Of a DNA stretch of 64,000 bases, positions 10,925-60,665 are shown one piece after another (within the stretch, counting starts at the first letter, position 1; each line of letters opens with the position of its first letter). This DNA is from Candidatus Sumerlaeaceae bacterium (GTDB taxonomy: Bacteria > Sumerlaeota > Sumerlaeia > Sumerlaeales > Sumerlaeaceae), in NCBI GenBank assembly GCA_051003195.1, contig JBPCLP010000034.1, positions 3,850-67,849 of the forward strand. The letters run 5' to 3'. The notes below the pieces were generated by a model. That model did no database searches. It was not told where the DNA came from and saw only the letters and a list, made by a program, of their open reading frames with translations. The position numbers and the translations under genes were made by a program.

Positions 10925-11173
10925 TCAGTAGGTGCGTGGCACGTCAGCTGTCGCGTACGTCCACAGAATCCGCGTGCCCGAGGATGTTATATGCTCGACC
11001 GTCAGCACCTTACGCTCCGGATCAAGCAGATCGCTTTCAAGCCGTGCAAGCGTCTTCGAGCCGGTCGTCATGCGAACGTTCCCAGAGGTTGATAAGGAAC
11101 TTTGCCCATAGACGGGAATGCTAGTCCCAAGGGCGATCACCATCGCGCCGAGACAACTCACCTTCTCGATCAT
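10925..11173 (-). CDS. Small secreted hypothetical protein (82 aa)
   Basis: MIEKVSCLGAMVIALGTSIPVYGQ signal-like; ATGA overlap with the stop of the upstream fusion gene. Confidence 0.5.
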   Translation of the reverse strand: MIEKVSCLGAMVIALGTSIPVYGQSSLSTSGNVRMTTGSKTLARLESDLLDPERKVLTVEHITSSGTRILWTYATADVPRTY

Positions 11174-17516: not shown

Positions 17517-19658
17517 ATGGACACTTCACGTAATACTGACACTACAGACTACGAGATTCTCGTAGGCACACCAAATGACGGTGCGGGGACGCCGGAATCT
17601 TCCAGTGCGTCTGCGCGATCCGAAGAGTCGCTCGCGCTACTGCCCGAAAGCACGGTTGGCTGCATCCAGGTAGTACGTCTCATTGGCTGCGGCAAAGTTA
17701 GCGAGTCCTGGTTCGGCGTCGATGCAAAGAACCAGCGCGAAGTGGTCGTTAAGGTACTGCGCAAGCCATGGTCATCCGATTCGACTGTGCTCTCATACTT
17801 CGAAAGTCAGCTTAACGCCATTCGATCACTGGATCATCCGAACCTTGCCAACGTGCTCGATGTCGGTCAGGACGATGGTATGCTTTTCTGGGTCACGGAA
17901 TGGGTAAAAGGCGGTTCAGTATGGCCGAAGATTCGCCGCAAAGGCCCCATGGAAATCCCGGCTGCGTTCAACATCGTCGATCAGGCTGCGGCAGGACTAG
18001 CCAGTGGTGCAGTGGCGGGGCTGGTTCACGGCGGACTTAAGCCCGAGAACATCCTGATGGAACGCTCCGGCGCGGTGAAGGTGTCGGATCTTGGAGTAGA
18101 ATTCGCCGCGCGCCAGCTGGTGAGTGGTACACCTGCCGCATCCACGCTTTGGCTTGCGGAGTTCATGGCTCCGGAAGTGCGGAGCGGCGGCATCCCGGAC
18201 ATCCGGAGCGACATCTATTCGCTGGGTGCCATCCTTCTCTACCTGGTCGCAGGTGTTGTACCGCACGATGGACTCCTGGATGCGACAAGTCCGCGGATCA
18301 CACCGGCACTGCGTCAGCTGCTGATTAAAATGACGGCTACCGGTCCGGATGACCGGCTACAGGATTACGGTGAACTGCGCGGCTGTCTCTCGGATGTCGA
18401 ATCGGCTATTGTTAACAGTGCGGCGACACCGGGCGATTTGATTTCGGCAACAGCGGCTCCAAAGAACGAGACGACCGGTGTGCACTCTGGGGATACACAG
18501 GAACTGTTTGAAACGCAAGAGACGCTATTCGACTCGGAGCCCGGTGAGCGGGCTGTCCCAGCGGCGGCCACTGCTACACGGCAGGATGCGGATCAGACGA
18601 CACCGGAACGAGAATTAACTGAAGCCGACCTTTTGCGAGCCTTTGCAAACGAGGAGGACCTGGTCTACAACGCGCCGGAACCGGCGCCCACTCCGATCGA
18701 TTTAGCAACTGGCGACCCTTCGCACAAACTAGTTTCGCAGACATGGGCGACACCGGCACGTCCAGCTAAGTCTCGAAAGCTGGCGGTTAGTGCGGTCGCA
18801 GTGCTCGCGGTCGCAGCAGCCGGCGCGGCCGCATGGTTCCTGACTCAAGGCAAGCCGGAGCCAAAGAAGGTCGTCGAAACCAAGGCGGTTGCACCTCGGG
18901 CGACAACTCCTCTTTCCCAACCCACCGTAACTGCGCAGGCAACACCTCTGCCGTCATCAGGTTCCGTTGTCACGCAGCCCGCTCCGCGAACGGTTTCAAC
19001 ACTGCCTGATCTTACTGCTGCGACGGCGACTCCGCCGCCCATTATCGATCCACCCGCCATTATTGCGCCGCCGGGAGTGGACCCCGTAGCGCTTGCTCAG
19101 ATCGCCGCGACACCCGCAAGTCCCGGGGTTGCAGTAAATTTTTTGCCGCACACGGCACCATCCTTTTCACCGGGAGCAGTGGCTGCAGCCGCCCGCACAG
19201 CTCCGGCACCATCCAATGATTCCATCATTGTCGACAATGCTGTTTCCGGCGCACTGGAACTTGATCCGCCATCGGGATGGCAGGCGTCACCGGAAACACG
19301 CGCATCGTATGCCGGGAGTTCGCTGGTTGCCATTACCGGCGGCGCCTCGCAGAAAGCTACGTTTACAGCTGATGTTCCGAAAGCCGGACGCTACCAGTTA
19401 TACATGTGGTGGGTTGCGCGTTCGTCGGATGTCAGGTCGGCAACCGTCCCGGTTACGATACATACTGCCACCGGACCGATCAACATCACGGTGGACCAGG
19501 TTAACAGTGACAGCGACTTTAATCTGATTGGTACTTATAACCTCAAGGCAGGCGTGCACCAACCGATCGTTTCTGTGAGCACAGATGGAATCAAAAATCC
19601 CAGCGGCAATGTGCATGTTTCCGTCGATGCACTTAAGCTAATTCCCAAAAACGATTAG
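17517..19658 (+). CDS. Transmembrane Ser/Thr kinase-like protein (probable pseudokinase) with extracytoplasmic golvesin/Xly-like carbohydrate-binding domain
   Basis: VVVKVL, LDHPNL, VHGGLKPENIL, VSDLG, FMAPE, DIYSLG; TM AVSAVAVLAVAAAGAAAWFL; C-terminal IIVDN...AGRYQLYMWW...DALKL. Confidence 0.85.
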   Translation: MDTSRNTDTTDYEILVGTPNDGAGTPESSSASARSEESLALLPESTVGCIQVVRLIGCGKVSESWFGVDAKNQREVVVKVLRKPWSSDSTVLSYFESQLNAIRSLDHPNLANVLDVGQDDGMLFWVTEWVKGGSVWPKIRRKGPMEIPAAFNIVDQAAAGLASGAVAGLVHGGLKPENILMERSGAVKVSDLGVEFAARQLVSGTPAASTLWLAEFMAPEVRSGGIPDIRSDIYSLGAILLYLVAGVVPHDGLLDATSPRITPALRQLLIKMTATGPDDRLQDYGELRGCLSDVESAIVNSAATPGDLISATAAPKNETTGVHSGDTQELFETQETLFDSEPGERAVPAAATATRQDADQTTPERELTEADLLRAFANEEDLVYNAPEPAPTPIDLATGDPSHKLVSQTWATPARPAKSRKLAVSAVAVLAVAAAGAAAWFLTQGKPEPKKVVETKAVAPRATTPLSQPTVTAQATPLPSSGSVVTQPAPRTVSTLPDLTAATATPPPIIDPPAIIAPPGVDPVALAQIAATPASPGVAVNFLPHTAPSFSPGAVAAAARTAPAPSNDSIIVDNAVSGALELDPPSGWQASPETRASYAGSSLVAITGGASQKATFTADVPKAGRYQLYMWWVARSSDVRSATVPVTIHTATGPINITVDQVNSDSDFNLIGTYNLKAGVHQPIVSVSTDGIKNPSGNVHVSVDALKLIPKND

Positions 19659-29529: not shown

Positions 29530-30009
29530 AATGGATTACCTTTCTGCTGCAATGAAGGTGGAGTAAACGGGGACTTAAAATGCGGAAAGACGATACGTCG
29601 TGGGATGGCAGGCTTTTCTCCTTTCCAATGGCCCGCTGAATTGAAACGCAGGATTGCCGGAATACAGAATGCAAGCATAATTAGTTCTTGGTGCAAATTA
29701 TATCACCCGCATGGCAGCTAGATGCCGAATCAGTAGTTCCTTACCAGACCAAAGGGCAGACTTTGACCTCGATTCGACACACAGAACAGACTACAAACTA
29801 ACGGTAGACCACACTAGGGCCTGCCGCGGACCGTTAGACGCATGGACCTGTCACAAAAATGCTGCCGATGCCGCTACGTATCTGGTTCCCCGGCTGGACA
29901 ACGAACTCCGCTTTGCGCGCGTTCAGAATCCCGCACTTCATGGAAGCAGCGACGTGAATTTTCTGTGCTTTCTGTTCGCTAACCAATCAGCATTCCAGCA
30001 CTTCGCTGC

Positions 30010-31401
30010 CTACTCGAACAGGTACCAGTCTGGCGCTGCAGTAATTGTCGACTGGGAGTGGACCCAATCGAACTGCGCCGCGGCTGCTGTTCCCAACTGG
30101 GCATCGCCGGGGCCAAAAACCCGTTTGGAATGCAGGCGCACCTGCGCATTTTTCAACGGAGCTGGATATACAAATCCACCATTGGGCGCCGAACTCCACG
30201 TGACGTTATCATAGCTGTAACGAGCTGTATACCGTGACCCGTTCTTCTGGATCTGCAGGTAATTTGGAAGCAGAGCCGTGCCGAAATCAACGTTAACAAC
30301 ATCATAAAGGCCGGCACGCTTATAGCCGACTTCGACACGGTTCGTGATCGTGTCCGACCTTTGAGCGCTGATCATGATCCAGTTACACTGGTCCTGCCAC
30401 AGCATCATCCCGTACCCATTCCACTGTTCAAAGGGGCGCAGGTCGTTCGGTCCGCTCAGTTTCGTGATAACTTCAAAGCTGTTGCTCGTCGGGGCGTCCT
30501 GGTAAATGTGCATTGCCCGTTCTACGTGTTCCCATTGGTCCTGCCGAAAACCGGGCAGCAGAGTAAGGTTACCTGCGCCGACACTCACCGTGCCTTTTTC
30601 AACACCTTCATAGAAGCTCCATAATGACGAGTTAAGCGACGTTCCATTAAACTCGTCGTCGGTGTAAGAAGCAGTAGGCCCTGTAACGCTGACCGTCCGC
30701 GCGTAATCAAAATCGGCGGGTCTTGGAGCCCCGGTGCCGAATCCACCCGTACCAAACAGCCGGAACTTTTCTGCCGTTAACGAACCATCGACCGTCTCCG
30801 GATTTCGAACAACAGGCAACACATTGATCCACGTCACTCCGTCACCGCTCATTTGGCCCAGGTAACCTCTCGGTGTCTTGACGACCTTCAGGAACATTGG
30901 GCTGGTTGTAATGCCATTGTACGCGGCCAGGCCGCTGTAGCGGTTGTTGGAAGTCCCGCTTGTCGGATCGGTCTGCCACACGGCCTCTACAATGCGCTGG
31001 AGGCCGTCGCCGCTGCTCATCACGTATATGCTCAACCAGTGGTCGTTATCCTGCCATAGCTGAATTCCCGTTTTGTTGTAGTTACGTCGGAAGCCGACTG
31101 CAGTCGGATCGAAGTTATCCAGTTTTGTAACAATTTCCCAGTTCGTACCCACGGGAGCATTCTGCTGAATATATGCCTGTGTATCGTTCTGCAGGAAGAG
31201 GTCGCTGCCTGCCGCCGCGGTCAGGCGATATGCGCTCCCTGTAAGCGTCGAGCTGCTGCCGCCTGGTGTGCTGTCGACAAATGTCCACTGCGGACCAAGA
31301 CTTCCTGAGTTGAACTCGTCGTTAACGAACTGGCCTTGTGCCGGTCGGCACACAACTATCGCTAATGCAGCAGAAAATAAGGCAAACGGGCGTGATAACA
31401 C
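30010..31401 (-). CDS. Secreted protein with two tandem ConA-like (GH43 C-terminal/DUF1349-like) domains and C-terminal DWYLFE motif
   Basis: Repeats NDEFNSGSLGPQWTF / DDEFNGTSLNSSLWSF, GIQLWQDNDHW / GMMLWQDQCNW, ADFDYART / AQFDWVH; GGGGAGG RBS before GTG 31401. Confidence 0.75.
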   Translation of the reverse strand: MLSRPFALFSAALAIVVCRPAQGQFVNDEFNSGSLGPQWTFVDSTPGGSSSTLTGSAYRLTAAAGSDLFLQNDTQAYIQQNAPVGTNWEIVTKLDNFDPTAVGFRRNYNKTGIQLWQDNDHWLSIYVMSSGDGLQRIVEAVWQTDPTSGTSNNRYSGLAAYNGITTSPMFLKVVKTPRGYLGQMSGDGVTWINVLPVVRNPETVDGSLTAEKFRLFGTGGFGTGAPRPADFDYARTVSVTGPTASYTDDEFNGTSLNSSLWSFYEGVEKGTVSVGAGNLTLLPGFRQDQWEHVERAMHIYQDAPTSNSFEVITKLSGPNDLRPFEQWNGYGMMLWQDQCNWIMISAQRSDTITNRVEVGYKRAGLYDVVNVDFGTALLPNYLQIQKNGSRYTARYSYDNVTWSSAPNGGFVYPAPLKNAQVRLHSKRVFGPGDAQLGTAAAAQFDWVHSQSTITAAPDWYLFE

Positions 31402-31767: not shown

Positions 31768-34700
31768 ATGCGTTTTATTTCTCTATCCGTTTCTTTGCTT
31801 TCCGTAGTTTTGGTTGCAGCACTCTGCCCAAGCCCGGCACTCGCTGCCGGCAATGCTCCACAGCCGGCAATTTGCACTCGCGGTTGCTGGGGAGCTAGTG
31901 CGCCCGGCTCGATCTCGTACATGTCGACGCTCAACCGCGCCATCGTGCACCACACGGCAGGCAACGAGTTCAACACGACCGGCTATGAAGCATCAAAGGC
32001 CAACGTAAGAGCCATCCAGAGCCTGCACAAGAATACGAACGGCTGGTCGGATATCGGCTACCATTTCCTCGTCGACAAGTTCGGGTACATTTTCGAGGGC
32101 CGCTACAACTCGATGGGTAGTCTGCCCCGGGGCGCACACGACGGCTTTAATACTAACAGCTTCGGCTTTAATGTCATGGGCTACTTTCACCCGACGGTGA
32201 ACAACGTCCCTACCGCCGCAATGATGAATTCGCTGTATGATATCATCGCGTGGCGCATGCCTTCGGCCTGGCGCCCCTATGGCTCGCCCGGTGGCACTTA
32301 CGGCGACCTTGGGAATACGGTTGGTTATGTCGATAGTCACCGTCGCGTCAAAGCAACGGCCTGCCCAGGCGATAACGTTCACAATCCATACATAGGCAAT
32401 AACGTGAACGCCGGGACCATCCGCGCTGAAATCAACAACCGTATCATCGGCGGCACGCCATGGGATGCGACCTTCAATAATCAGTCATACGTCGGCGCAA
32501 TGTATCCCGGCCAGGCAGCAACCTTCTGGGTCGAATATAAAAACGTGGGCACGAACACATGGACGCCGGGCGGCGGAAACCCGACACGCCTGGGTACAAG
32601 CAGCCCGCGAGATCGCTCAAGTGCGTTCTTCACTTCCGGAAACTGGCCCAACGCCAGCAGGCCTACTGATGTGGATGCATCCACAGGGCCTAACGGCATC
32701 GGGCGATTCAGTTTTGTCGCAACCGCCCCACAGACGCCGGGCTATTATGTAGAAAACTGGGAACTCGTCACAGAAGGCGTCTCCTGGTTCGAGGGCGCCG
32801 GAGACGGATCATGGTTCGGTATCGAAGTCGCCAAACAGGGCGACAACATCCAATGGGAGTGCGAAGATTACAGTCGCGGCATCCACGCCGCGAATAACGT
32901 GGATTATTTCGATACCACCGCTGGCAACACGGGCGGTGCCTATCGTTCCCAGGACGTCGATATACGTGCGTGCGTCGAAGGCGGTTACCAGGTCGGCTGG
33001 ACAGAACCAGGCGAATCGCTGAGATATTATTTCTACGGAGGCGGCAACAGCTACCGCTTTGCTGTACGTTATTCGAATGGATCGGCCGCCAATGCATCCG
33101 TACGCCTTCGCGTCGATGGCGTTGACGTGGGCACCGTCATTCTGCCGCCAACTGCAAACTACGATACGATGGCGACGGCCTACACGCATGTCAGCATCGG
33201 TTCCGCCGCACTGCATGAACTGAAGATCGACGTCATGTCCGGCAACCCGGACCTCAACAATTTCCGCCTCGATAAGGTGTGGAACCCACCGCACAATTTC
33301 AGCTTTAATGCGCAGGGTTATGATGTGTGGGGCAGAAACGGTCTTTCGGCTATTAGTTGGACGGACTGCTGCGGCTGGCCCGGCATCATGTATACGGATC
33401 AAACCGGCAATGACGCGTTTGTGTACAGCGGCGCCACGAATTTCACCGGCGGTTCTTATGATCTCATTCACGTCCGTGTCTTCCCGCAGGGAGGCACCAG
33501 CGCCAGCCACAATATGCAGATATTCTGGCTGAACTCAGAGGATTGGGCGTGGAACTCTGCGAAGTCCTCGGATATCGTTTACTTCACCGCGCAGGATGCC
33601 TGGGCGGATGTGTACCTCTATGTCGGTCCAAACTCCGGATGGAACGGGAAAACAATCACCCAGCTCCGCCTGGACTTTGATAACACAAGTGTGGGTACGC
33701 GTTGGCATGTGGACTCCCTCAGTATCGAGCAACAACCCACCGCACCAGCAGCGCCTACCGGCCTCGCTGCAACGGCTGCATCTTCCTCGCAGATTAATCT
33801 CGCGTGGACGGATGCATCGAACAATGAGGAGAATTTTGTCGTGGCACGCAGCGCAACAGCCGGCGGGCCTTACACGGATCTCGCCACGCTGGGCGCAAAT
33901 GTAACCAGTTACTCCGACACCGGGCTTTCCCCGCTGACGGCCTACTATTATGTTGTGCGCGCAACCAACGCGGCCGGCTCATCGGCAAATTCAAGTGAAG
34001 CCTCAGCAACAACGTTGTCCAACATCCCGACTGCGCCATCCGGACTCGCGGCAGCTGCGACCACTCCTTATGACATTAATCTCACCTGGACTGACAATTC
34101 CGCGAATGAGGCGAACTTCGTGGTTGGTCGCAGTTCCGTGGCAGGTGGCCCCTATGTGGACATCGTGACCCTTGGGGCGAATGTCACATCTTATACCAAC
34201 AGTGGACTGAGCCCCAGCACCACGTATTACTATGTCGTCCGGGCGACGAATTCCGGAGGCTCTTCTGCGAATTCCAACGAGGCGAGTGCAACGACACTTC
34301 AGCAACCGCCCAATGCACCAAGTGCACTGGGGGCGACTGCAATCAGCTCGACACAGATTAACCTGGCGTGGACGGATAACTCCACAAACGAGGCAAACTT
34401 TGTGGTCGCACGTGGCTCCGCAAGCGGTGGCCCGTACACGGACATCGCCACGCTCGGCGCTAATGTAACCTCATACAGCAACACCGGCCTGACCGCCGCC
34501 ACGACGTATTACTATGTCGTGCGGGCGACCAATGCCGGTGGAGCGTCGGCAAACTCCAACCAGGCCTCTGCAACAACGTTACCTAATCCGCCCGCAGCCC
34601 CCAGTGGACTGGTCGCAACCGCGGCCTCGAATGGTACGCAGGTCGACCTCGGTTGGGCGGATAACTCGGGCAATGAAGCTAACTTCATCGTCGCACGCTC

Positions 34701-36411
34701 TGCCACCTCCGGCGGACCCTACTCCGACATCGCTACGTTGGCCGCCAATACTACCAGCTATTCAAACACGGGTCTGGCGGAAAACACAACCTACTATTAC
34801 GTGGTGCGGGCCACGAACTCGGGAGGATCCTCCGGGAACTCCAACCAGGCTACCGCAACCACTCCGGTCCCTGATCGCATCATCGACAATCCATCTGCCT
34901 CGCTGACCGGCACGTTCTCGACAGGAACGAGTGCGTTGGACAAATTCGGTGCCGACTACAACTACAGAAGCCAGGGTACTGGCGCAAACTACGCCACGTT
35001 CACGCCAACGCTGGCCGTCGCCGGACGCTATAGCGTTTACGAGTGGCACCCACAGGGAACCAACCGCACAATCGGTGCTCCGCATGTCATCACATTCGAT
35101 GGCGCGTCGGATACCATCGCGGTGAATCAGCAGGTAGGTGGCGGTGCATGGAATCTGCTCGGGACCTTCAACTTTGCGGCAGGTTCGTCGGGGAACGTGA
35201 GAATCACCGATGCGTTCCCGGATGCCGGCCAGCTGGTTCTGGTCGACGCCATCAAGTTTGTGTACGTTGGCGGCGCCGTGGCACCGGCAGCGCCGACCGG
35301 ACTTGCGGCAACGGCTGCGTCTCCATCGCAGATAAACCTCTCGTGGAACAACGTGCTGAACGAAAGCGGGTACGTCGTTGCACGCAGCACGACATCCGGT
35401 GGCCCTTACACGGATATCGCAACGCTCGGGGCAAACGTTACAAGCTACTCGAACACCGGCCTCGCCCAGAACACCTCCTACTACTACGTGGTACGCGCAA
35501 CCAACAGTGCAGGAGCATCAGCCAATTCGGCGCAGGCCGCCGCGACAACACCGGTTGCACCACCCGCCGCTCCAAGCGGGCTGAGCGCCACCGCACTTAC
35601 ACAGACAAAGGTCAGTCTAAGCTGGACGGATAACGCGACGAACGAGGCGAATTATGTCGTCAGTCGCGCAACCACGGCCGGTGGACCTTACACCGACATC
35701 GCCACGCTTGCAGCAAACAGTGTGAGTTACACCGACACGGGATTGTCGGCCAGCACGGCCTACTACTACGTCGTTCGGGCAACAAATGCCGGCGGTGGAT
35801 CAGGCAACTCCAACGAAGCTGCAGTTACTACGCCCGTACCCGCAACCATTACGGTCGACGCGGTCGGTGCGGACGATGGCTGGGCGCTCGAGAGCGCTGC
35901 CGGGTCAAACGTCGGCGGTTCTAACAACGGTATCAACACCACGTTCGCCGTAGGCGACATGACCGGCAACCGTGCATACCGCGGCATCGTTTCATTCGAT
36001 ACGTCCGGGCTTCCGGATGACGCGAGCGTCACAAAGGCCACGCTGCGGCTTACCCAGTACTCGCTGAACGGCACAGACCCATGGGCCGTCTTAGGAACCC
36101 AGGCAGTCGATATTAAGACACCCAACTTCGGCGCGGTAGCCGGTATGGAAAATAGCGACTGGGAAGCAGGGGCAGGTGCGGCCAGTGTTGGTACTGTGCC
36201 AAAGCCCGCCGCCAATGGCTCCAGCGTCGATGCGATCCTCAGCTCCGGTGCAAATGGCCACGTGAGCGTCACGGCGAAGACGCAGATGAAGCTCCGCTTT
36301 ACCACTAACACCAACAGCGACGCGCTTAATAACTACGTGAACTGGTACTCCGGCGACTTTACCACCGACACCACCAAGCGTCCCAAGCTGATCATCGAAT
36401 ACGTGCAATAG
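31768..36411 (+). CDS. Secreted multidomain N-acetylmuramoyl-L-alanine amidase (Amidase_2/PGRP) with Ig-like, CBM6/35-like, 6x FN3, golvesin-like and C-terminal DNRLRE-like domains
   Basis: IVHHTAG, GWSDIGYHFLVD, GAHDGFN, HRRVKATACPG; six APxgL...YYYVVRATN repeats; C-terminal RPKLIIEY. Confidence 0.88.
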   Translation: MRFISLSVSLLSVVLVAALCPSPALAAGNAPQPAICTRGCWGASAPGSISYMSTLNRAIVHHTAGNEFNTTGYEASKANVRAIQSLHKNTNGWSDIGYHFLVDKFGYIFEGRYNSMGSLPRGAHDGFNTNSFGFNVMGYFHPTVNNVPTAAMMNSLYDIIAWRMPSAWRPYGSPGGTYGDLGNTVGYVDSHRRVKATACPGDNVHNPYIGNNVNAGTIRAEINNRIIGGTPWDATFNNQSYVGAMYPGQAATFWVEYKNVGTNTWTPGGGNPTRLGTSSPRDRSSAFFTSGNWPNASRPTDVDASTGPNGIGRFSFVATAPQTPGYYVENWELVTEGVSWFEGAGDGSWFGIEVAKQGDNIQWECEDYSRGIHAANNVDYFDTTAGNTGGAYRSQDVDIRACVEGGYQVGWTEPGESLRYYFYGGGNSYRFAVRYSNGSAANASVRLRVDGVDVGTVILPPTANYDTMATAYTHVSIGSAALHELKIDVMSGNPDLNNFRLDKVWNPPHNFSFNAQGYDVWGRNGLSAISWTDCCGWPGIMYTDQTGNDAFVYSGATNFTGGSYDLIHVRVFPQGGTSASHNMQIFWLNSEDWAWNSAKSSDIVYFTAQDAWADVYLYVGPNSGWNGKTITQLRLDFDNTSVGTRWHVDSLSIEQQPTAPAAPTGLAATAASSSQINLAWTDASNNEENFVVARSATAGGPYTDLATLGANVTSYSDTGLSPLTAYYYVVRATNAAGSSANSSEASATTLSNIPTAPSGLAAAATTPYDINLTWTDNSANEANFVVGRSSVAGGPYVDIVTLGANVTSYTNSGLSPSTTYYYVVRATNSGGSSANSNEASATTLQQPPNAPSALGATAISSTQINLAWTDNSTNEANFVVARGSASGGPYTDIATLGANVTSYSNTGLTAATTYYYVVRATNAGGASANSNQASATTLPNPPAAPSGLVATAASNGTQVDLGWADNSGNEANFIVARSATSGGPYSDIATLAANTTSYSNTGLAENTTYYYVVRATNSGGSSGNSNQATATTPVPDRIIDNPSASLTGTFSTGTSALDKFGADYNYRSQGTGANYATFTPTLAVAGRYSVYEWHPQGTNRTIGAPHVITFDGASDTIAVNQQVGGGAWNLLGTFNFAAGSSGNVRITDAFPDAGQLVLVDAIKFVYVGGAVAPAAPTGLAATAASPSQINLSWNNVLNESGYVVARSTTSGGPYTDIATLGANVTSYSNTGLAQNTSYYYVVRATNSAGASANSAQAAATTPVAPPAAPSGLSATALTQTKVSLSWTDNATNEANYVVSRATTAGGPYTDIATLAANSVSYTDTGLSASTAYYYVVRATNAGGGSGNSNEAAVTTPVPATITVDAVGADDGWALESAAGSNVGGSNNGINTTFAVGDMTGNRAYRGIVSFDTSGLPDDASVTKATLRLTQYSLNGTDPWAVLGTQAVDIKTPNFGAVAGMENSDWEAGAGAASVGTVPKPAANGSSVDAILSSGANGHVSVTAKTQMKLRFTTNTNSDALNNYVNWYSGDFTTDTTKRPKLIIEYVQ

Positions 36412-44251: not shown

Positions 44252-46888
44252 CTAGTACGAGTTCCAGTTATCCACGGTGGTCGCAGGGTCTGGAATTGCT
44301 CCATAGGTAGAATTAATCCCTGTGATGGGAGCAGTGATCGAATATATTTGCCTGCCATTCTCCAGCCTAACCGGAACCGGCGGGCTCTGGCCGCCGAGGA
44401 ATGTTACGGACGCCGCTTCCTTTGAAGCGGGGTAAGCCGCTGGATAGGTAAGCCGTGCAGCTCTGAATTGTGTATATGGTTTGTTAAAAAGCACAGCGTC
44501 ATCTTCACTGAACTCGACGTCAATCGTCGCCCCGGCAGTAAAGGTAACTCCACCAGGTGAGAGGGTAAAGGCGCCACGTACCTGCTTGGAGGTGACTTTA
44601 ATTTCCTCTGCTCGAGTAAGGGTGATCGTCGTCGGTAAAGTTCCCGGATAGCTAACTACAGTGCTGCTGGTGGTCCTTAATGCTGGCTTATAAAAAGAAC
44701 TCGCAGAATTGCCCAGTGTCCACGCCCCAGGCTGTGTCGTGAGAAGGTCCGTCGCATTGCTCACTTTGGCCTGCCATTCGCCATATTTGCCCGAAACTTT
44801 GTCTCCGGCATACGAAAAGAGCCCGGCAACGAGCAGAGTATCGCCCCGCATTGCCATATCAGAAACCCAGCCAAGGCCGTATTCATTGTCCGTGCCGCTT
44901 CCAAGCGCAGCCCAGGACGTCCCATTCCATTCTGCAATGCACTTTGCACTTACTGCACCCACGGTACTGAATCGTCCGCCGATATAAATGCTGTTACCAG
45001 ACGCAACGATTGTGTTGATGTTGGTATTGATTCCTCCAATTTTAGGCGACCAGGCGGTTCCGTTCCACCGCGCGATATACCACGAGTATGGATCATAGGT
45101 AGCGGCCCAGAGATCACTGCCGCTGGCCGTGATGGTCTGCACATTTTCGTTAACATTAAGCGGGAGCGCAGACCAGGCAGTTCCGTTCCATTTGGCGATT
45201 GTCTTTGCACTGATTCCGCCTGCGGTAGTAAAGCTGCCGGAAGCATACAGGTTCCCGCCACAAATTGCTATGTTACTGACCGCACCATCCATTCCGGATC
45301 CCAGCGGCGACCACACCGACCCGTTCCACATGGCAATCCGGTTTAATACAGTGCTACCCGCCGCAGTGAAAGCGCCACCAACGTAGACCTTTTCCCCATC
45401 TGTTGCAATGGCATACACCCTCTCGTTCATGCCGGGCCCAAGTGCCGACCACTCGGTCCCGTTCCATTTCGCAATGTTACTGACGGTTGTTTCACCTGCG
45501 TGAGTAAACAACCCGCCTGCATAAACAGAATTTTGGTCTGCCGCCACAGCATAGACCGGGGCATACGTGTAGGAAGGGTGACTCATGCCGCTTCCAAGAC
45601 TGGCCCAGGAACTGCCATTCCATTTTGCGATACAGTTCGCAGTGACGTCGCCAACGCCTGTGAAACTGCCACCGCAATACACGTCGTCACCTTTCACAGC
45701 CAGGCATGATAGCTGATCACTGAACCCAGCCTGCATATTGGACCATGAGGTTCCGTCCCACTGGGCAACATGATGTGCAAAGACGCTGCCGGCCTTGATA
45801 AAGGTGCCGCCGGCATAAAGCCGCGTGGGGCTGGCAGCCAGTGCGCGGACTTCATAATCAGTTGCCGTAAATCCACCCATACCTCCGCCTACCGAGAACC
45901 AGGAGGTTCCGTTCCATCCCGCCATCCCGGTGGTGCCGGGGATGATGCCTCCCGCACTTGTGAAAATACCGCCAACGAAAAGATTACCCTCACGAGCAGC
46001 CAGGCAATGCACTCGTGTAGACTGTAGCCCCGACACTGCTGACCATGAGGATCCGTCCCATTTATGGAGCACTTTGTTCGTATTTCCCTGCTCGCCACCC
46101 GCGTATAGTGCGTTGTCGTGCATTGCGAGTGCATAGACAGTTCCAACCATCCCTGTATTGTTCACGCCTGACCAGGTGGCATCTTTCCATTTTGCAATGG
46201 ATGGTGCATACACCCCGCCCGCCTCAAAAAAATGGCCGCCCACATATAACTCGGTGCCGGAAGTCACCAGGGCGTTTGCCATAACGTTCAACCCACTACC
46301 GAGAGAAGACCACGTACTGCCGTTCCACCTGGCGATTCTGTTGGCCGGGGCAGCACCGGCAATTGTAAACGAGCCCGCTGCATACAAATCGTTTCCGATG
46401 GTTGCCAGGGCACTTACCGCTCCGCCGCTAACCCCCGCACCAAGGGGTGCCCAGGAAGCGCCGTCCCACCTCGCAATACCACTGGCGGCTATACCGCCGG
46501 CAGTAGTAAAAGCACCCCCGGCATAGACATAACCGCCGGCAATCGCGATCGCAGAGACGCTGCCACTCAGTCCACTTCCGAGACTGGACCATGAAGTCCC
46601 ATCCCATTTCGCGATGTAGGCAGCGCGCACTTTTCCGATGTGCTCAAAGCTTCCACCGACATAGAGGTTCCCCTGCCCATCCACAGCAGTAGCCAGCACA
46701 TCATTGTCGGCCGTTGCGGGGAAATTATCATCCCAGTAGGCATCGTCAGCATTTGTAGAAACAACCTTGGGCTGAGAGCTTATTTGCTCGGTCCTGACTC
46801 CCCCACCAGGAGCTGCGGCCGAAACTGTTAGGCTCGCTTGCAGAAGAACACCTGCGGCAAAAATGAGAAATCGGCTTGGCAGTGTCAT
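44252..46888 (-). CDS. Secreted beta-propeller repeat protein (galactose-oxidase/Rax2-like blades) with C-terminal beta domain and DNWNSY motif
   Basis: About 12 repeats of YxGGxFtxaGxxxaxxIAkWnGtsWsxLgsG; start MTLPSRFLIFAAGVLL (ATG 46888). Confidence 0.8.
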   Translation of the reverse strand: MTLPSRFLIFAAGVLLQASLTVSAAAPGGGVRTEQISSQPKVVSTNADDAYWDDNFPATADNDVLATAVDGQGNLYVGGSFEHIGKVRAAYIAKWDGTSWSSLGSGLSGSVSAIAIAGGYVYAGGAFTTAGGIAASGIARWDGASWAPLGAGVSGGAVSALATIGNDLYAAGSFTIAGAAPANRIARWNGSTWSSLGSGLNVMANALVTSGTELYVGGHFFEAGGVYAPSIAKWKDATWSGVNNTGMVGTVYALAMHDNALYAGGEQGNTNKVLHKWDGSSWSAVSGLQSTRVHCLAAREGNLFVGGIFTSAGGIIPGTTGMAGWNGTSWFSVGGGMGGFTATDYEVRALAASPTRLYAGGTFIKAGSVFAHHVAQWDGTSWSNMQAGFSDQLSCLAVKGDDVYCGGSFTGVGDVTANCIAKWNGSSWASLGSGMSHPSYTYAPVYAVAADQNSVYAGGLFTHAGETTVSNIAKWNGTEWSALGPGMNERVYAIATDGEKVYVGGAFTAAGSTVLNRIAMWNGSVWSPLGSGMDGAVSNIAICGGNLYASGSFTTAGGISAKTIAKWNGTAWSALPLNVNENVQTITASGSDLWAATYDPYSWYIARWNGTAWSPKIGGINTNINTIVASGNSIYIGGRFSTVGAVSAKCIAEWNGTSWAALGSGTDNEYGLGWVSDMAMRGDTLLVAGLFSYAGDKVSGKYGEWQAKVSNATDLLTTQPGAWTLGNSASSFYKPALRTTSSTVVSYPGTLPTTITLTRAEEIKVTSKQVRGAFTLSPGGVTFTAGATIDVEFSEDDAVLFNKPYTQFRAARLTYPAAYPASKEAASVTFLGGQSPPVPVRLENGRQIYSITAPITGINSTYGAIPDPATTVDNWNSY

Positions 46889-47673
46889 CAATGGCCCCCT
46901 GGTGCAGATTGACACGCTGCACATCGTATTAGTTGCGATCCTTGAGGATCCGTTAGCGGCGAGTCAAGTTCCCGCTGCCACTCCTAAGCATACGAAAAAT
47001 CTAGGGATATTGAAGATTGCGATACGGTTCTGGGGATGGTTCCGTGGACGGCTCGCGATTTCAGTTCTGGTCAAGCTATTGCCGAACTGGCTCGAGAATT
47101 CGGTCCATAGAATTCGAAGATTGCGCGACGAGTGACGGGGTTCTGAAGTGTGGTTTTAAGCTTGGGGGCTCGGCTGCTGGTTGTCGTCAGGAAAAGTGAA
47201 AACAAGCTTTTGCATTCTAAAGATTGCTGCGCAATCGGGTGGGTTGGTGGTGGACGGGTGTAGGGCTGGTGGATGTGGGCGGGAAGGTCGGCCATTCGGT
47301 AGAGTTAAATTCGGGGACGTCCCCGGTTAGTCCCCCTCCCTTCCTTTTCCTGGTCAGCGATTCGGCTTGCGTCGGAACGCCGCTTCCTTATTTTAGCACG
47401 CCCATGAACTTTAGTCAGCACTCCCGTAATGGTATTGCGCTAAGATCGAGCGACGCAACGGGCATGCTGCTTCGGAACCCGATGGGCATAGCCGTACGCA
47501 ACCATTTGGAACATGCCGCGAAGGTCCAGCAGACCAGTTGCGAACTTCTCGTGCTCAAAGGCGTATAATGGGAACTTCACGCCACAAGACTGTCCTGAAG
47601 GCTCAAGTGGCGCACCTCGGATTCATAAAGGTCCAGCGACTGCTGAACCAAGCTGCAGGGAGGAACCCCAGAG

Positions 47674-52154: not shown

Positions 52155-53981
52155 TTAGTGGATCTGAGGCTGACCAGGCAGTTGGATTGGCGTAAGTATG
52201 ATCCCGCTGGTGGTGGCTTTCTCTGCCAGCGTAATGTAGCCCTTCCAAACATCGTCGGGTGAACTTGCCACTTTAACGCTGACGGTGCGCGCTCGCCCGA
52301 ATGCCTGCTTTCCAAGTCTTGCAATGACATCGAAATGACCCGGGTGAAGTTTTTCACAACGGAAGCGTCCCGTATCATCAGAGAAAACCGGTTGTTGCGA
52401 GTAGATGTTAACTACCGGCATGTTGGGTGTGAGAATTGGCGCATTCGACGTCGTGTGTATTTGAAGCTCCTGACCCACGCTGTCAGCCGATTCCAGCGTC
52501 GAGACTGACAGCTTTGCGCCTGCAACCGGCCGTCCGTCACTGTCGATCACCTGTCCCTCAATACTTGCGCCGTCAGTGGGCATCACGATTTGAAGACCAA
52601 CTGCGGGCGCGGTTGCCGAGGCAGTGGTCTGCACATAATCTGCATTCACGAAGCGCAGGGCGCATCGACGGGATGCGGGTGCTTCGAATCGAAAGGTTCC
52701 ATCGTCGTTACATCTGTGCCACTGCTGCGGCTTGTTTTCCCTGTTTTCCCAACGAACCGCTATATAAACGTGTAGGATGGGTGATCCCTGCTCGTTTGTC
52801 ACACGGCCTGAGATCTCCGCATTGTCAGCTTTTGCAGTGCTATTTGCTGCAACAGGGGCCGCGGCGGCCGTTACGGTTTGTGGTGAGGATTGCGCGAGGA
52901 TGATGGGTGTGGCGGCCAGCGGCGTCGAGGACGCAGGGCTTTCGTGAATGCGGACAGGCGTCTCGCTGCTGATGACGTTTGGCTTCGCTCCGGCAGCTGC
53001 TACGGATGTCACTTGCGCAGGCCGGGAAAGATCTCGCGCGAGCGGGGGAGCAAGAACGCTTTCCGTTTTTGTCGAAGCAGGTGACGCTTTTATCCTGATG
53101 TCTGATTGTATGGTTTGTACTCTTCGACCACTCTCACCAGGTATGGTTACGGCAATTTGGTCCGTTGCAGGTGATCCCGATCCGAACCATATTACAGCTG
53201 CGACGGCTGCTGCTCCTAATCCTAATGCCGGCATGAGCTTTCCTCCTGGTAGTGGGTTTGATAAGACAGAAGTCCGTGGAATAGTGGCTTGCCTGATGAG
53301 CTGCTCGCGCGCCTGAGCAGGCAGCGAGATTGCGGCGCCGATAAGCGCAACAGCGCCGGCGACTCTCTGCTTGCGAGACGCAGGCGGTTTGAGATCGCGC
53401 TCCATATCAGCGGCGGTAAACTCTCGAAGGTTCGCGAGTGCGCGTTGAAGCTGGCGCGACACAGTGGACGGCTGAACGGATAGTTGTCGGGCCACTTCGC
53501 TTAGCGAGAGTCCCTCGCCGAAATGAAGCATCACTACATCGCGCTGGGACGGGGGCAGGGTAGAAATATAAGCGCGCAGGTTGACCGCCGTTTCATTGTC
53601 GGTGGCCTGCTCCATCGGCGTGGGGCGGCGATCCTTCACCTGTGCGAGCAGCTCGGATTCTGTGGTGACAAATTGTACGAGCCGGGAAGCACGGATCTGC
53701 TTTTTGCGCCAGTCGAACGCCAGGTTACGCGCCGTTCGCAAAACCCAGGGAGCAAATAATCGGGAGTTCCGAAGCGAGGCCAGGTTGAGAAACACGCGCA
53801 GAAACACTTCCTGTGTAAGGTCCTCGGCGCTTTCCCGGTCCCACAGAATGCTGTAGCCGACGGCGAACACGCTACCGTAGTAGCGCTCAACCAGGCGTGA
53901 GAATGCGAGCTGGTCGCCATCCCGTGCGGCGTCCGTCCACACCGCGTCGGTGTGCACGAGCTCATCGCTGAGTTCCGTCAT
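52155..53981 (-). CDS. ECF (RpoE-type) sigma factor fused to a TM segment and carboxypeptidase-regulatory-like domains
   Basis: GDQLAFSRLVERY, AEDLTQEVFLRVF, FAPWVLRTARNLAFD; LPPSQRDVVMLHFGEGLSLSEVARQL; TM ALGLGAAAVAAVIWF; ISGRVTNEQGSPI, IEGQVIDSDGRPVAGA. Confidence 0.88.
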   Translation of the reverse strand: MTELSDELVHTDAVWTDAARDGDQLAFSRLVERYYGSVFAVGYSILWDRESAEDLTQEVFLRVFLNLASLRNSRLFAPWVLRTARNLAFDWRKKQIRASRLVQFVTTESELLAQVKDRRPTPMEQATDNETAVNLRAYISTLPPSQRDVVMLHFGEGLSLSEVARQLSVQPSTVSRQLQRALANLREFTAADMERDLKPPASRKQRVAGAVALIGAAISLPAQAREQLIRQATIPRTSVLSNPLPGGKLMPALGLGAAAVAAVIWFGSGSPATDQIAVTIPGESGRRVQTIQSDIRIKASPASTKTESVLAPPLARDLSRPAQVTSVAAAGAKPNVISSETPVRIHESPASSTPLAATPIILAQSSPQTVTAAAAPVAANSTAKADNAEISGRVTNEQGSPILHVYIAVRWENRENKPQQWHRCNDDGTFRFEAPASRRCALRFVNADYVQTTASATAPAVGLQIVMPTDGASIEGQVIDSDGRPVAGAKLSVSTLESADSVGQELQIHTTSNAPILTPNMPVVNIYSQQPVFSDDTGRFRCEKLHPGHFDVIARLGKQAFGRARTVSVKVASSPDDVWKGYITLAEKATTSGIILTPIQLPGQPQIH

Positions 53982-56832: not shown

Positions 56833-59800
56833 CTAGTCGTACAATTGCCAATCGTGGGAGGTGGTGATGCCGCCGCCGGAGTTTCCGACGAGCGCGGAGA
56901 TGAGCTGCGCATCGGAAGCGGACGCGGACTCTAGCCGCACGTACACCCAGCACGGCGCGCTGGTGATCCAGGTTGCAATGAAACGGCCGGCACTGGCCTG
57001 CGAAGAGTTTGCCGAGGCGCGCTGCACCAAGGTGTTGACGGGGCATACGGGATCGAGCGCTTCGCCTGCGAGCGACTGGAAGACGGTGACGGTTGCCGGA
57101 TTGGCTGAGGTTGCGTTTGGGTCGGCCGCGATGATGCGCAAGGTTGTGCCGGCCGTGGGCAGCCATGTTTTGTACCAGGCATCTGGAATGGTGTCGCAGC
57201 CGCCAGTGCAGCAGGTGGAACTGCCGCAGGCGGTAAGCGCACCGGAGAACGCAACGCCGCTTTGCATGTTCTGCGCGGTGAGTGGTTCGTCGTTGGGCAC
57301 TGTTTTGGGACAAGCCTGGTTTGTGCCGGCGTTGAACTGCGACTTGTTCTGCGCGACGGAGAGAATGGCGCCGTCGGTGCCGAACACGTTGCCCTGGCCC
57401 TTGGCATTCCACACGGCAAGGAGGTCGGTGCCGTCCATGGCTAAACGCGCATCCGCGTTGTCGACCAGGCCCTCCTGCGGACTGAGAACGTACGGGCTGG
57501 CGCAGACGAGCTGGGCGGGTTGGCTGTTGGTACCGCCGCCGGGATCGGCGTGCGCCATATAGATTGCACCATTCGCGTTCCCGGTGCCGCGGCGCCAGCA
57601 CAGGTGGATTTGTCCTGCGGAATCAGCAAGCAGGTCGTCGAGGCGATCGTCCTCGCGATCGACTTTTGCAAAGTCGGGAAGCAGGAGTTTTGGCTCGGTC
57701 CACGCGGTGGAACTGTTTGGTGTTGTGGAGTAGTAGAGGTCGAGGTCTTCACCGCCCCGCCAGTTTTCCTGCATGGACCACACCGCCAGCCAGAAGCCGC
57801 TGGTTGCGCGTGGTACCCAGCAGATTTGCGGGTTCACGATTTCGCTCGTGGTGCTTCGAACGATTTGCCTGGTGCCTCCCATCAGAACCCGCAGTTCCGT
57901 GTCGTCGGTGGCATGTGGCGGATCACTGGTGGCGGGTTTGACCACGTAGATGTCCATCGAGCTCTCGGACACGGTGGTGCCGGCAGACTGGCTGTAATCG
58001 ACGGTCATAAATGCTGGTGACGCATAGGGTGTGAGGTCGGGTTCGGCAGGGATGACGTTCGCGTTGATGGGAAGCGTGGAAGAATTCTGCCACGATCCGC
58101 TGAGGGGCTGAGTTCGCGTGAACACCGTGCGGCAGCAGGAACAGACCGAGCCGTCGCCTTCCTGCCCGTTGCGAATCCATGTCGCGCTCCATTCGGCGCC
58201 CGAGCCGACGGGACGAAGTATGAGATGGGGGTTCGTGGGTGCGGTGCCGCTGCACGTGAGATCGGTGTCGGATAGTTCCTGTGCGGGGTCCCACGCGCCA
58301 GCGGCAGCGGGCATCCTGATGAGCTTGATCTTCGTGGCGGTCGCAAAGATGATTCGCCACTCGTTGTTGCCGAACACGATCTTCAGCGGCTGGGAAGTAA
58401 CAGCCGGTTCGAGGGCGCCATTGTACGCAATGGTCGCAGGGGACCACGACCTGCCCTTATTGATCGAGCTGGCGACGACGACGTTTCCGTCTGAGTTCCA
58501 TGCGGCGATCATCGATCCTGCGCCGGTGGCGACACTGGGCGATGCCTGCCTGGCGGATCCGCCCGGTGGCATCAGTGTGACGGCACCGGGCGCCTGGTTG
58601 CCCCAACTGATGGTGAGTTGCTGGTCGAACTGGCGGGTGAGATCGGGCGAGCGGACACTGACAAGGTACTGGGCGGTGGCTTTGGTTCGATAGCTGACAG
58701 TCCATTTGCCGAGCGGGTCAGCAGCATTCTGCACGAGTGCGTTGGCCGTGTCGGTGGCACGGTACACTTTGATCACCGGAATCGCACCACCGGGGTCGCT
58801 GAAGAACACCTTCAGGGTATCGCCGACCGGCACAGTCACTTTGTACCAGACGCCGTTGGGAGCGTTGTACGTCAGCGGGCCATGCAGCATCGATCCGTTC
58901 TGCTCGCTGGTGAGAACGTGCGCGCGGACTGCGGCGTCGTTTGTCGGGTAGTTGTCGACGGAAAGATTGGCAGTGCCTGTGAATCCGAACTTCACGATTA
59001 CCTGCGGCGACTGACCAATGATGGGCGACGACGTCACATCGCTGTTGTTCACCTCGAGAGCGGTCCCGGTGGCGATGGCATTGTTGTTGGGGCTGTATTT
59101 GAGCGGATCGTAAACCGCGGCTGTGGCGGGAGCGGGGCAGTTGACCACGATCCTGCGATCGGTATCAAGCGGGTAGCTGACCACGCGATACGTCAGCCCG
59201 GAACCGGACTGCTTTGTTGGACCGTGATACGAGATCGTACGCACGTTTACGGTGGGGCCAAATGCCGGACGGTCGAAAAGGAAGGGAACCAGGCGCTGCA
59301 GATAGGCCTGGTTGCCGAGCGGCGTGAGGTGAATGCCGTCCTCGACTACATAGTCGGGGTGGCGCGCGGATGTGTAGGGCGGGAAATCGGCATAGTGGGG
59401 CACGAAAGCGTGAGGAACAAACGCGTGGGGCGCGGAGGGATCGGGTACAAAGCTCAGTCCGTACGACGTGGATAAATCGCTGAGCCCGCGATTCAATATA
59501 CGAACGGCGCGATCGCGGATTGCTTTGTCGCGGAACTTCAGCGCAGCGCCGTCCTGGCCGTGCGCCATGAGGTGATAGCCCTGGACGATCACGCGGACGT
59601 TCTGCGCATTGTAGGCGGCCATTGCGCGTACAAGCCGCTCGAGGACGTCGTAGTTGCCGTTGCATCCGTCGGACAGCATGTCGGTGCCACAGACGATGTC
59701 TTCGCACAGCTCCTCCTGCTGGGCGAACTGGGCAGGCTGGCGGCAGGGTGCGAAGCCGTAGTCGAGGCCGTTGAAGCCCGCCAGCATTACGATGGTGGAT

Positions 59801-60324
59801 GGACGGCCGAAGCCGGTATAGGAGTCGGGCGTGGTACCGGGCGAAAACAGTCGGTCCAACATCATACGAAGGCGGAAAGTGCCCAGGCCAAGAGAGCCGA
59901 AGTTGACGGAGAGCGGAACGATGGGATTGAACGAATTGGGTGGAGCGTAGCGGAAGTCGCCACGAAAGAGATACGTGATGGTGTCGCCAAGAAATGCGAT
60001 GTCGCCTTCCTGCCATTTCAAGGATGGGTCGGGGTCGCCCTGGTCGTTCTTAAAGGATTCGGCATCGGTGCAGAGGATGCAGTTTTGCACGCGGATGGCA
60101 GCGGCGTAAAGAAGCGCGCAATAGTCGGTGAACCCATTCGCAGCGCAGGAATTGCGGCAGGACCAGTCGCAGATCTCGGCGGTACAATCGCCGGAGGAAG
60201 TGGCTGGCAGTGGAGGTGGCGGAAGGGTGCAGGTGCACGCCGGGCAATCTTCGGCAGGCAGGCTGGAGGGACCCATGAGTACTAGAAGACAGACGAAAAT
60301 GGATGCTCGGCAGAGCCGTCTCAT
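56833..60324 (-). CDS. Large secreted modular protein: Cys-rich N-terminus, SGNH/GDSL-like domain, beta domains, BNR/sialidase-like propeller, C-terminal DWQLYD motif
   Basis: MRRLCRASIFVCLLVLMG signal (ATG 60324); FLGDTITY, LAGFNG, EDGIHLTPLGNQAY; SSINKGRSWS Asp-box-like. Confidence 0.78.
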   Translation of the reverse strand: MRRLCRASIFVCLLVLMGPSSLPAEDCPACTCTLPPPPLPATSSGDCTAEICDWSCRNSCAANGFTDYCALLYAAAIRVQNCILCTDAESFKNDQGDPDPSLKWQEGDIAFLGDTITYLFRGDFRYAPPNSFNPIVPLSVNFGSLGLGTFRLRMMLDRLFSPGTTPDSYTGFGRPSTIVMLAGFNGLDYGFAPCRQPAQFAQQEELCEDIVCGTDMLSDGCNGNYDVLERLVRAMAAYNAQNVRVIVQGYHLMAHGQDGAALKFRDKAIRDRAVRILNRGLSDLSTSYGLSFVPDPSAPHAFVPHAFVPHYADFPPYTSARHPDYVVEDGIHLTPLGNQAYLQRLVPFLFDRPAFGPTVNVRTISYHGPTKQSGSGLTYRVVSYPLDTDRRIVVNCPAPATAAVYDPLKYSPNNNAIATGTALEVNNSDVTSSPIIGQSPQVIVKFGFTGTANLSVDNYPTNDAAVRAHVLTSEQNGSMLHGPLTYNAPNGVWYKVTVPVGDTLKVFFSDPGGAIPVIKVYRATDTANALVQNAADPLGKWTVSYRTKATAQYLVSVRSPDLTRQFDQQLTISWGNQAPGAVTLMPPGGSARQASPSVATGAGSMIAAWNSDGNVVVASSINKGRSWSPATIAYNGALEPAVTSQPLKIVFGNNEWRIIFATATKIKLIRMPAAAGAWDPAQELSDTDLTCSGTAPTNPHLILRPVGSGAEWSATWIRNGQEGDGSVCSCCRTVFTRTQPLSGSWQNSSTLPINANVIPAEPDLTPYASPAFMTVDYSQSAGTTVSESSMDIYVVKPATSDPPHATDDTELRVLMGGTRQIVRSTTSEIVNPQICWVPRATSGFWLAVWSMQENWRGGEDLDLYYSTTPNSSTAWTEPKLLLPDFAKVDREDDRLDDLLADSAGQIHLCWRRGTGNANGAIYMAHADPGGGTNSQPAQLVCASPYVLSPQEGLVDNADARLAMDGTDLLAVWNAKGQGNVFGTDGAILSVAQNKSQFNAGTNQACPKTVPNDEPLTAQNMQSGVAFSGALTACGSSTCCTGGCDTIPDAWYKTWLPTAGTTLRIIAADPNATSANPATVTVFQSLAGEALDPVCPVNTLVQRASANSSQASAGRFIATWITSAPCWVYVRLESASASDAQLISALVGNSGGGITTSHDWQLYD

Positions 60325-60665
60325 AACCGGCGAACGCAGCCCTTTGGCGGGCGAGCCGTGAGGATCCATCGCTGTAATGTGGTCTACCATTAATTCGTAT
60401 TCGGTTCTGTGTGCCGAATTGAGCTCGTCTTCCGCACTCAAACTGGATAGAAACTTCTGATTCGGCACAACTAGTTATAAGCCCGAGTGCTAAAAATTGC
60501 CGGCGTGCAGACTTTACCAGTTTGCATAGGGTTCCGGGCGAATCTTCCCGCTGGCAAACACAGCCATGCGGATGAACGGTTTGTAAAAATTGCGCGTTGA
60601 ATGGTCAACCTCGACTCTAGTTCTTACGTCGAAGCTGATTGCGAGAAAAACAGGGGTAGAACGGC

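Follow-up and report, generated by a model that had tools for sequence, protein, structure and literature searches.

A short C-terminal motif on unrelated exported proteins, apparently restricted to Sumerlaeota and most likely a sorting or retention tag

The window analyzed here, a 64,000-nucleotide stretch of contig JBPCLP010000034.1 from a Candidatus Sumerlaeaceae bacterium (assembly GCA_051003195.1), encodes three proteins with signal-peptide-like N-termini (proteins 1, 2, and 3) that end in almost the same few residues, a tail centered on a tryptophan with a tyrosine or phenylalanine three positions further on. The comparisons presented below indicate that this tail is a real and previously undescribed C-terminal motif restricted to one phylum, the Sumerlaeota (formerly BRC1), and, by analogy with other C-terminal signals, it most likely serves in sorting or retention, as a tag with a new architecture. 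Its conserved core is [VAI]-x-[DGN]-W-x-[LVF]-[YF]-([ED])-stop, in which the W alone is close to invariant, within the wider consensus [TS]-x-[VAI]-x-[DGN]-W-x-[LVF]-[YF]-(E/D)0-1-COOH, and it is carried by six unrelated families: a protein with two ConA-like domains (protein 1), a propeller with a C-terminal beta (Ig) domain (protein 2), an orphan (protein 3), GH3 hydrolases, a 209-residue protein, and a BNR-repeat protein.

The three genes of the window lie on the minus strand, in open reading frames (ORFs) at 30010-31401, 44252-46924, and 56833-60468, and all three end exactly as a first-pass annotation of the window had written. The gene of protein 1 (30010-31401) encodes 463 residues, comprising a predicted Sec signal peptide (31333-31401, minus strand; MLSRPFALFSAALAIVVCRPAQG, its end approximate and assigned by inspection of the sequence), two ConA-like (GH43_C2/DUF1349) jelly-roll domains, and the tail. 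The tail occupies 30010-30045 (minus strand), from I453 to E463 and the stop codon (ITAAPDWYLFE), with the core D458-W459-Y460-L461-F462-E463, and the C-terminus as a whole reads ...TITAAPDWYLFE before the stop. Pfam matches GH43_C2 and DUF1349 in this protein, and a Foldseek search returned GH43 xylosidase C-terminal domains together with the DUF1349 structures 3o12 and 3mep. Its hydrophobic N-terminus is kept in all homologues, residues 1-22 having predicted local distance difference test (pLDDT) scores below 50 in the AlphaFold2 (AF2) model. An identical copy of the gene lies on a sediment-metagenome contig, and the sole public run with the gene is a sediment metagenome. Protein 2 (44252-46924, minus strand) has 890 residues when read from the ATG at 46924, with the signal-peptide-like N-terminus MTLPSRFLIFAAGVLLQASLTVSAAA, Rax2/Kelch-like beta-propeller repeats, a C-terminal beta domain of ~190 residues, and a tail at 44252-44284 (minus strand; ATTVDNWNSY, full ending PATTVDNWNSY, core V-D-N-W-N-S-Y); in the public gene call (P0014) the start is at 46888 and the protein has 878 residues. 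Protein 3 (56833-60324, minus strand) has 1163 residues from its probable start, the ATG at 60324, within the longer ORF that extends to 60468, and there is no clear Shine-Dalgarno sequence before either candidate ATG. As judged by eye, the signal-peptide-like N-terminus MRRLCRASIFVCLLVLMGPSSLPA is succeeded by an SGNH-like region, BNR-like repeats, and a pair of PPC-like beta domains, after which comes the tail at 56833-56868 (minus strand; ITTSHDWQLYD), so that its C-terminus reads ...GITTSHDWQLYD before the stop. Neither Pfam nor NCBIfam has a match to protein 3, and a search among 1.84 billion representatives recovered only the protein itself and five weak partial matches, making it essentially an orphan. 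The folds of the three carriers are thus unrelated, as the first-pass annotation had supposed: ConA-like jelly rolls, a propeller, and an orphan, as judged from Pfam, AF2, Foldseek, and the homologue searches.

Such a coincidence of endings does not arise by chance. In the 36 curated genes of the window (17,447 residues) there are four occurrences of the pattern [DN]W..[YF], three of them at the extreme C-terminus, compared with 0.0034 terminal matches expected from composition (P for at least three ~7e-9), a value that is post hoc since the motif was defined from the same genes. Greater weight belongs to the independent checks, namely the six-frame search, the control loci, and the conservation in homologues. 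A looser expression (W-x-x-[YFLW], optionally one polar residue, then stop) applied to the 335 six-frame ORFs of at least 80 residues in the window matched only the three real genes, and in control loci from Planctomycetota and other phyla (1.09 Mb) the expression W..[YF][DE]?$ matched one of 2002 ORFs of at least 150 residues, a 169-residue ORF that looks spurious. A chance origin of the tails is excluded.

The homologues of proteins 1 and 2 supply the third check. Protein 1 has 13 homologues, all metagenomic and 38-57% identical to it, and every one of them keeps the tail, with the consensus TAAxDWQLFE; W459 and L461 are invariant in the 14 sequences while the linker that precedes the tail is variable. 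Ten of the 14 end in E or D, and some members lack the final acid and end DWQLF, DWQLY, or DWELY. At the DNA level the codons for D, L, F/Y, and the stop vary synonymously between contigs, which means that the protein, and not a nucleotide element, is what is conserved, and a DNA-level element as the cause of the tail is ruled out on this ground; an Rfam scan of the window gave no matches, so that no known RNA element underlies the tails. A scan of Genome Taxonomy Database (GTDB) genome contigs with the family-1 alignment found no relative, and the metagenome scan found two loci only. The propeller of protein 2 is widespread (7902 matches), and only five sequences are true orthologues with the C-terminal domain ENGRQIYSITAPIT.I.STYGA.P. 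All five keep W-x-x-Y, their endings being NWQYY (P0023), DWSAY (P0036), DWTLYE (P0040), EWQKY (P0075), and SWKGY (P0113). Taken together, these alignments argue that the tail is real and under selection at the protein level.

A different ending was seen among the other propeller homologues. Those of Verrucomicrobiota type (P0016, P0018, P0021, P0024, and dozens more) have a beta-rich domain and then the ending ...[RK]-F-[YF]-R-[ALV]-x-x-P-stop, which looks like a second lineage-typical C-terminal end-motif.

The tail extends beyond the families from which it was defined. A 14-kb locus (L006), fetched around a homologue of protein 1, also encodes two other tailed proteins that have signal peptides, namely a GH3 hydrolase with the ending AEVADWAVY and a 209-residue protein, its function not assigned, with the ending AAAGWMLYD, so that this locus has three copies of the tail, as does the 64-kb window. 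One of the weak partial matches of protein 3 (P0138) is a BNR-repeat protein with a signal peptide that ends ENWGEYE. All full-length carriers that were inspected have N-termini resembling signal peptides. The GH3 hydrolase led to a clade (P0140-P0233) in which the members with NCBI names are assigned to Sumerlaeaceae, Sumerlaeia, or Sumerlaeota and the conserved domain end ...G.[WL]PV.[IV] is followed by a short linker and then by the motif. Here W stands exactly at position -4 from the C-terminus in 43 of 91 ingroup sequences and in none of the 26 outgroup GH3 sequences (Blastocatellia and others), which end ...PGFYPIGHSAAKK; given that W makes up 1.0% of the GH3 protein body, this is a 46-fold enrichment over background. 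In many of the remaining ingroup tails W is replaced by Y or F, the end is hydrophobic plus acid (HFSIE, SWLFE), or the motif is followed by 1-13 extra residues. It should be noted that the contigs around homologues, part of the ~290 kb of lineage DNA sampled, were selected for the presence of the tail, so that the unbiased replications are the two extra genes of L006 and the GH3 clade only; the other homologue contigs, mostly short, contained no new tailed family.

Two observations on individual GH3 genes may be added. Five members (P0152, P0154, P0156, P0160, and P0168) are short at the N-terminus (535-543 residues), start MTLDEK..., and have no signal peptide by our heuristic, and in these same five W-x-x-[YFL] is followed by extra residues and does not lie at the chain end; the tail may have decayed upon loss of export, or the gene starts may be mis-called. 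In addition, a tailed GH3 gene (P0144, ending ...SVDAWELY) lies on a Sumerlaeota-like contig of 148 kb (L092, ENA ERZ4567617) from a human gut (Hadza/Nepal) metagenome assembly. Sumerlaeota are usually reported from sediments and soils.

The first-pass annotation had proposed that the tail is lineage-specific, and the wider sampling bears this out: the tailed GH3 sequences with names are from Sumerlaeota, the outgroup GH3 sequences have none, and the control phyla gave the single match described above. The window itself belongs to this lineage, its GcvPB being 77% and 75% identical to the proteins of two Candidatus Sumerlaeota metagenome-assembled genomes (MAGs; the 77% match is from Sumerlaeales) and 52-56% identical to the best from Planctomycetota. 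The tail therefore appears, from these comparisons, to be restricted to the Sumerlaeota lineage.

The definition of the motif is based on 84 tails from four carrier families, anchored on W. Relative to W, position -5 is T, S, or A, position -3 is V, A, or I (56/84), position -1 is D, G, or N (52/84), position +1 can be any residue, position +2 is L, V, or F, and position +3 is Y or F (59/82). The stop codon follows directly in 50 of the 82 anchored tails and the others add E or D before it, or more residues. A short linker rich in T, S, A, P, and G connects the motif to whichever domain is last. The first-pass consensus, xT-[TA]-[AVS]-x-[DN]-W-x-[LS]-[YF], over-fitted the three sequences from which it was drawn and has to be amended, the upstream T/A reflecting linker composition only.

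This arrangement of an aromatic or hydrophobic residue, last or second to last and beside a carboxylate at the extreme C-terminus of most carriers, recalls the Y-x-F-COOH peptide of outer-membrane proteins (OMPs) that activates DegS, and raises the possibility that the tail is a ligand of a periplasmic PDZ protease or chaperone (Ctp/Prc or DegP/DegQ/DegS-like) and has its role in the C-terminal maturation of these proteins, in their regulated turnover, or in the sensing of stress, not in localization. The exposed and flexible tail of the protein 1 model, described below, would suit such a ligand. However, canonical PDZ domains anchor the last residue, and the register of the motif to the chain end appears not to be fixed, Y or F being last in ~60% of tails, E or D in others, and 2-13 more residues sometimes following. 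The charged terminal E or D, present in 10 of the 14 family-1 sequences, is disfavored by the recognition of non-polar ends that is typical of Tsp/Prc, a degron would hardly be expected as the best-conserved feature of enzymes that are stable and extracytoplasmic, and no gene with a PDZ domain was noticed in the window. On balance, we consider a PDZ ligand of this kind to be improbable, though deserving of attention.

The nature of the carriers bears on another alternative, in which there is no receptor and the W, the Y/F, and the carboxylate bind directly to the envelope (the lipopolysaccharide (LPS)/outer-membrane interface, an S-layer, or a surface glycan) or to an insoluble substrate such as chitin, thereby keeping enzymes near the cell or the polymer. 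W and Y are typical interfacial and carbohydrate-stacking residues, and the carriers are related to glycans (ConA-like domains, GH3 hexosaminidase, BNR-type repeats, and an adhesin-like propeller protein). Sumerlaeota have been described as degraders of chitin and polysaccharide (PMC8092238), which also counts in its favor. Nevertheless, a flexible peptide in which four to five residues are informative would by itself bind membranes or glycans only weakly, its partitioning into membranes is opposed by the flanking Asp and by the acid at the end, and the known carbohydrate-binding modules are folded domains. The strict V-x-x-W-x-x-[YF] spacing and the conserved [DGN] before W look instead like a fit to a protein pocket, and we regard direct anchoring as quite unlikely.

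The predicted structures place the tail outside the folded part of the protein. The AF2 model of protein 1 (mean pLDDT 86.6, predicted template modeling score 0.83) has its last strand at residues 442-451, and residues 455-463 of the tail, the invariant W and L included, have pLDDT values below 50; hence the tail follows the last folded domain, as had been claimed for all three proteins at the outset. A stretch that is predicted to be disordered and is yet conserved would be the signature of a short linear motif that binds another partner. The AF2 model of the GH3 protein (pLDDT 91) shows coil for the nine C-terminal residues, their mean pLDDT being ~70, and this tail may pack partly on its own domain. 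The intermediate confidence of the GH3 tail, together with the degenerate tails of many GH3 members, is what could be said for an absence of any trans-acting role, the tail being either an intramolecular stabilizer or a neutral, lineage-specific relic or convergence. Against this, one motif on six unrelated folds cannot be integral to each of them, and the tail of protein 1 is disordered in the model and at the same time the most conserved feature of its C-terminus. Moreover, a neutral relic would not hold an invariant Trp down to 38% identity, and W at -4 is enriched 46-fold in the GH3 clade and absent from the outgroup. The conservation, the model, and the GH3 statistics have already largely refuted this explanation, and we judge it very improbable.

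None of the C-terminal signals described so far corresponds to the tail. Pfam and NCBIfam models, run on the carriers and on isolated C-terminal pieces (E<=1), gave no match to the tails, and the literature searched on Sumerlaeota secretion and on Trp-containing C-terminal sorting signals describes no such motif and gives no account of secretion systems in Sumerlaeota. The motif is not followed by a hydrophobic stretch, and in most carriers the chain ends 0-1 residues past it. The suggestions made from the three sequences alone, that the tail contains no transmembrane helix and matches no described sorting signal, are borne out by these results. The nearest relatives in kind are the tripartite signals LPXTG/sortase, PEP-CTERM/exosortase, GlyGly-CTERM/rhombosortase, and MYXO-CTERM/myxosortase, which, like the tail, lie at the extreme C-terminus, occur several times per genome, are lineage-restricted, and are carried by signal-peptide proteins that are otherwise unrelated. 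They differ in having a transmembrane segment and an Arg/Lys cluster, whereas the tail has ~8 residues, ends in Y, F, E, or D, and implies no intramembrane protease or sortase, of which none was found in the neighborhoods. Haft described small C-terminal sorting signals by their C-terminal location, several copies per genome, signal peptides on the carriers, otherwise unrelated carriers, three near-invariant signature residues, a transmembrane helix, and a basic cluster (10.1101/2023.06.07.544157). The first four of these features are found in the tail, the signature residues are found in part, W alone being near invariant, and the transmembrane helix and the basic cluster are lacking.

The C-terminal domain (CTD) of type IX secretion (T9SS; PF18962/TIGR04183) is similarly a C-terminal addition to Sec-exported, folded, and often glycan-active or adhesin-like proteins, but it is a folded, Ig-like domain of 70-100 residues, and it was rejected as an identity for the disordered tail of ~8 residues, which has no PF18962 or NCBIfam match. 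The propeller homologues of protein 2 are instructive in this respect. Those of Bacteroidota end in the PF18962 CTD and others end in a hydrophobic helix with a basic cluster, so that sorting modules occupy the very position of the tail, and this is by analogy the best, though indirect, argument that the tail would be a sorting tag. The beta-signal of OMPs and the DegS-activating Y-x-F-COOH share with the tail a C-terminal aromatic beside the free carboxylate with hydrophobic residues just upstream. However, the carriers have soluble jelly-roll, propeller, and TIM-barrel-type folds and not beta-barrels, W-x-x-[YF] does not have the spacing of alternating hydrophobics, and an acidic end is frequent (10 of the 14 family-1 tails), on which grounds a substrate signal for the beta-barrel assembly machinery (BAM) was rejected. 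Substrates of type I secretion have no Sec signal peptide, and RTX/GG repeats are usually found upstream of their signal; this signal was set aside for carriers that have N-terminal signal peptides and no RTX-type Pfam matches. Type VII substrates are small helical hairpins without a Sec signal in which Y-x-x-x-[DE] follows the WXG hairpin; the carriers use Sec and are large and rich in beta structure, their residues are spaced as W-x-x-[YF]-[DE], and the organism is diderm, as deduced from LptE and LolA on L004, so that the WXG/YxxxD/E signal was rejected also. Two further systems resemble the tail in principle only. The lipoprotein export signal (LES) of Bacteroidota is a very short linear peptide that specifies surface export, but it is N-terminal, acidic, and follows the lipidated Cys, and KDEL-type tags are short C-terminal peptides read by a receptor for retention in a compartment, but they are eukaryotic. 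The tail has no sequence similarity to either of them.

Based on these analogies, we put forward a hypothetical mechanism in which a lineage-specific protein of the envelope recognizes the motif and directs translocation across the outer membrane or retention at the surface, a proposal that we hold to be about evenly balanced. The cargo would be exported by Sec and fold in the periplasm, leaving the tail exposed to be bound by the envelope protein. We propose that a hydrophobic pocket would accommodate the W together with the hydrophobic +2 and aromatic +3 residues, that a negative charge would come from the adjacent carboxylate, of either the chain end or the final Asp/Glu, and that binding would send the cargo across the outer membrane or hold it at the cell surface. 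The tail would in this way take the role of the T9SS CTDs or of PEP-CTERM-type anchors as a much shorter signal that does not span the membrane. A bolder version, which we regard as unlikely, is that the tail is a portable, linear signal for the outer-membrane export or surface retention of folded proteins, read by a dedicated receptor such as a GspC-like component of type II secretion, through its PDZ-type domain, or a new translocon.

Several results weigh against recognition by an envelope protein. There is no consistent candidate for a sortase, peptidase, porin, PDZ protein, receptor, or translocon in the neighborhoods of the tailed genes. The GH3 beta-N-acetylhexosaminidases are often periplasmic, and crossing of the outer membrane is not obviously needed by every carrier; the canonical tail is found in only about half of the GH3 clade, the many non-canonical tails suggesting that it is dispensable or drifting there. 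The signal peptides were judged by eye and with a hydrophobicity heuristic only, and the start of protein 3 is ambiguous, the public call (P0134) beginning 16 codons further in, which would truncate its signal peptide. Finally, no tailed gene was found among 146 ORFs near gcv in named Sumerlaeota MAGs, a small and mostly cytoplasmic sample.

As to the gene neighborhoods themselves, a pseudopilin-like gene of the prepilin type (N_methyl) lies at 6691-7335 (plus strand) of L006, between two tailed genes. Both there and on the contig of P0005 an N_methyl gene is one or two genes away from the tailed family-1 gene; this recurrence on two independent contigs was judged too weak to use.

The tail marks a subset of exported proteins. 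Within the window the amidase (1547-1548 residues), the EEP-family protein, and the sulfatase, which had been singled out early on as secreted and untailed, indeed lack it, and so do a L,D-transpeptidase-like protein and several proteins without assigned function, all of them signal-peptide-like. Untailed exported proteins on other contigs include a polysaccharide deacetylase, a substrate-binding lipoprotein, and a 1696-residue CarboxypepD_reg protein. In the DNA sampled, approximately one gene in 12-20 is tailed.

The window has other features that stand apart from the tail. An element of ~110 nt is present in two copies, at 29712-29830 (plus strand) and 60362-60482 (minus strand), which have an exact 36-mer pattern in common (CACACAGAACnGAnTACnAAnTAAnGGTAGACCACA; 0 expected by chance). 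The latter copy sits just 5' of where protein 3 starts, on the same strand, and the former is intergenic, after the stop codon of protein 1 and on the opposite strand. Rfam has no match to the element, its consensus fold is weak (-6.8 kcal/mol), and none of the 93 loci searched has a copy; a small repeat, a regulatory site, and a noncoding RNA are all conceivable. A single ORF at 11170-14580 (minus strand) encodes 1136 residues in which a 2-oxoacid dehydrogenase E1 (E1_dh, Transket_pyr, Transketolase_C) is joined to a lipoyl/biotinyl domain and to KAS III (ACP_syn_III), an unusual fusion that joins keto-acid decarboxylation with fatty-acid initiation. The 608-residue ORF at 52155-53981 (minus strand) combines an ECF sigma factor (regions 2 and 4) with C-terminal CarboxypepD_reg domains, and a Golvesin_C domain is found both on a Ser/Thr protein kinase (17517-19658, plus strand) and on the secreted amidase/FN3/CBM35 protein (31768-36411, plus strand).

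The wider meaning of the tail follows from what comparable signals have revealed, in that LPXTG, PEP-CTERM, MYXO-CTERM, and the T9SS CTD each led to new envelope machinery. All of the small tags known to us either combine a motif with a transmembrane helix and a basic cluster or take the form of folded domains. If our proposal is correct, a tail of eight residues that has no membrane segment and is used across an uncultured phylum would point to a different principle of recognition and to a new partner. Should the tail prove to be a portable export signal, secretion after Sec would for the first time have a simple sequence code outside the T9SS, and there would be a handle on what type II-like systems recognize; if transferable, the tail would be a very small tag for secretion or display. 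For the Sumerlaeota, there would be a gain in annotation, as the tails are currently invisible to domain databases, and the motif would flag, from sequence, the surface and secreted proteome of the phylum, including its polysaccharide-degrading enzymes.

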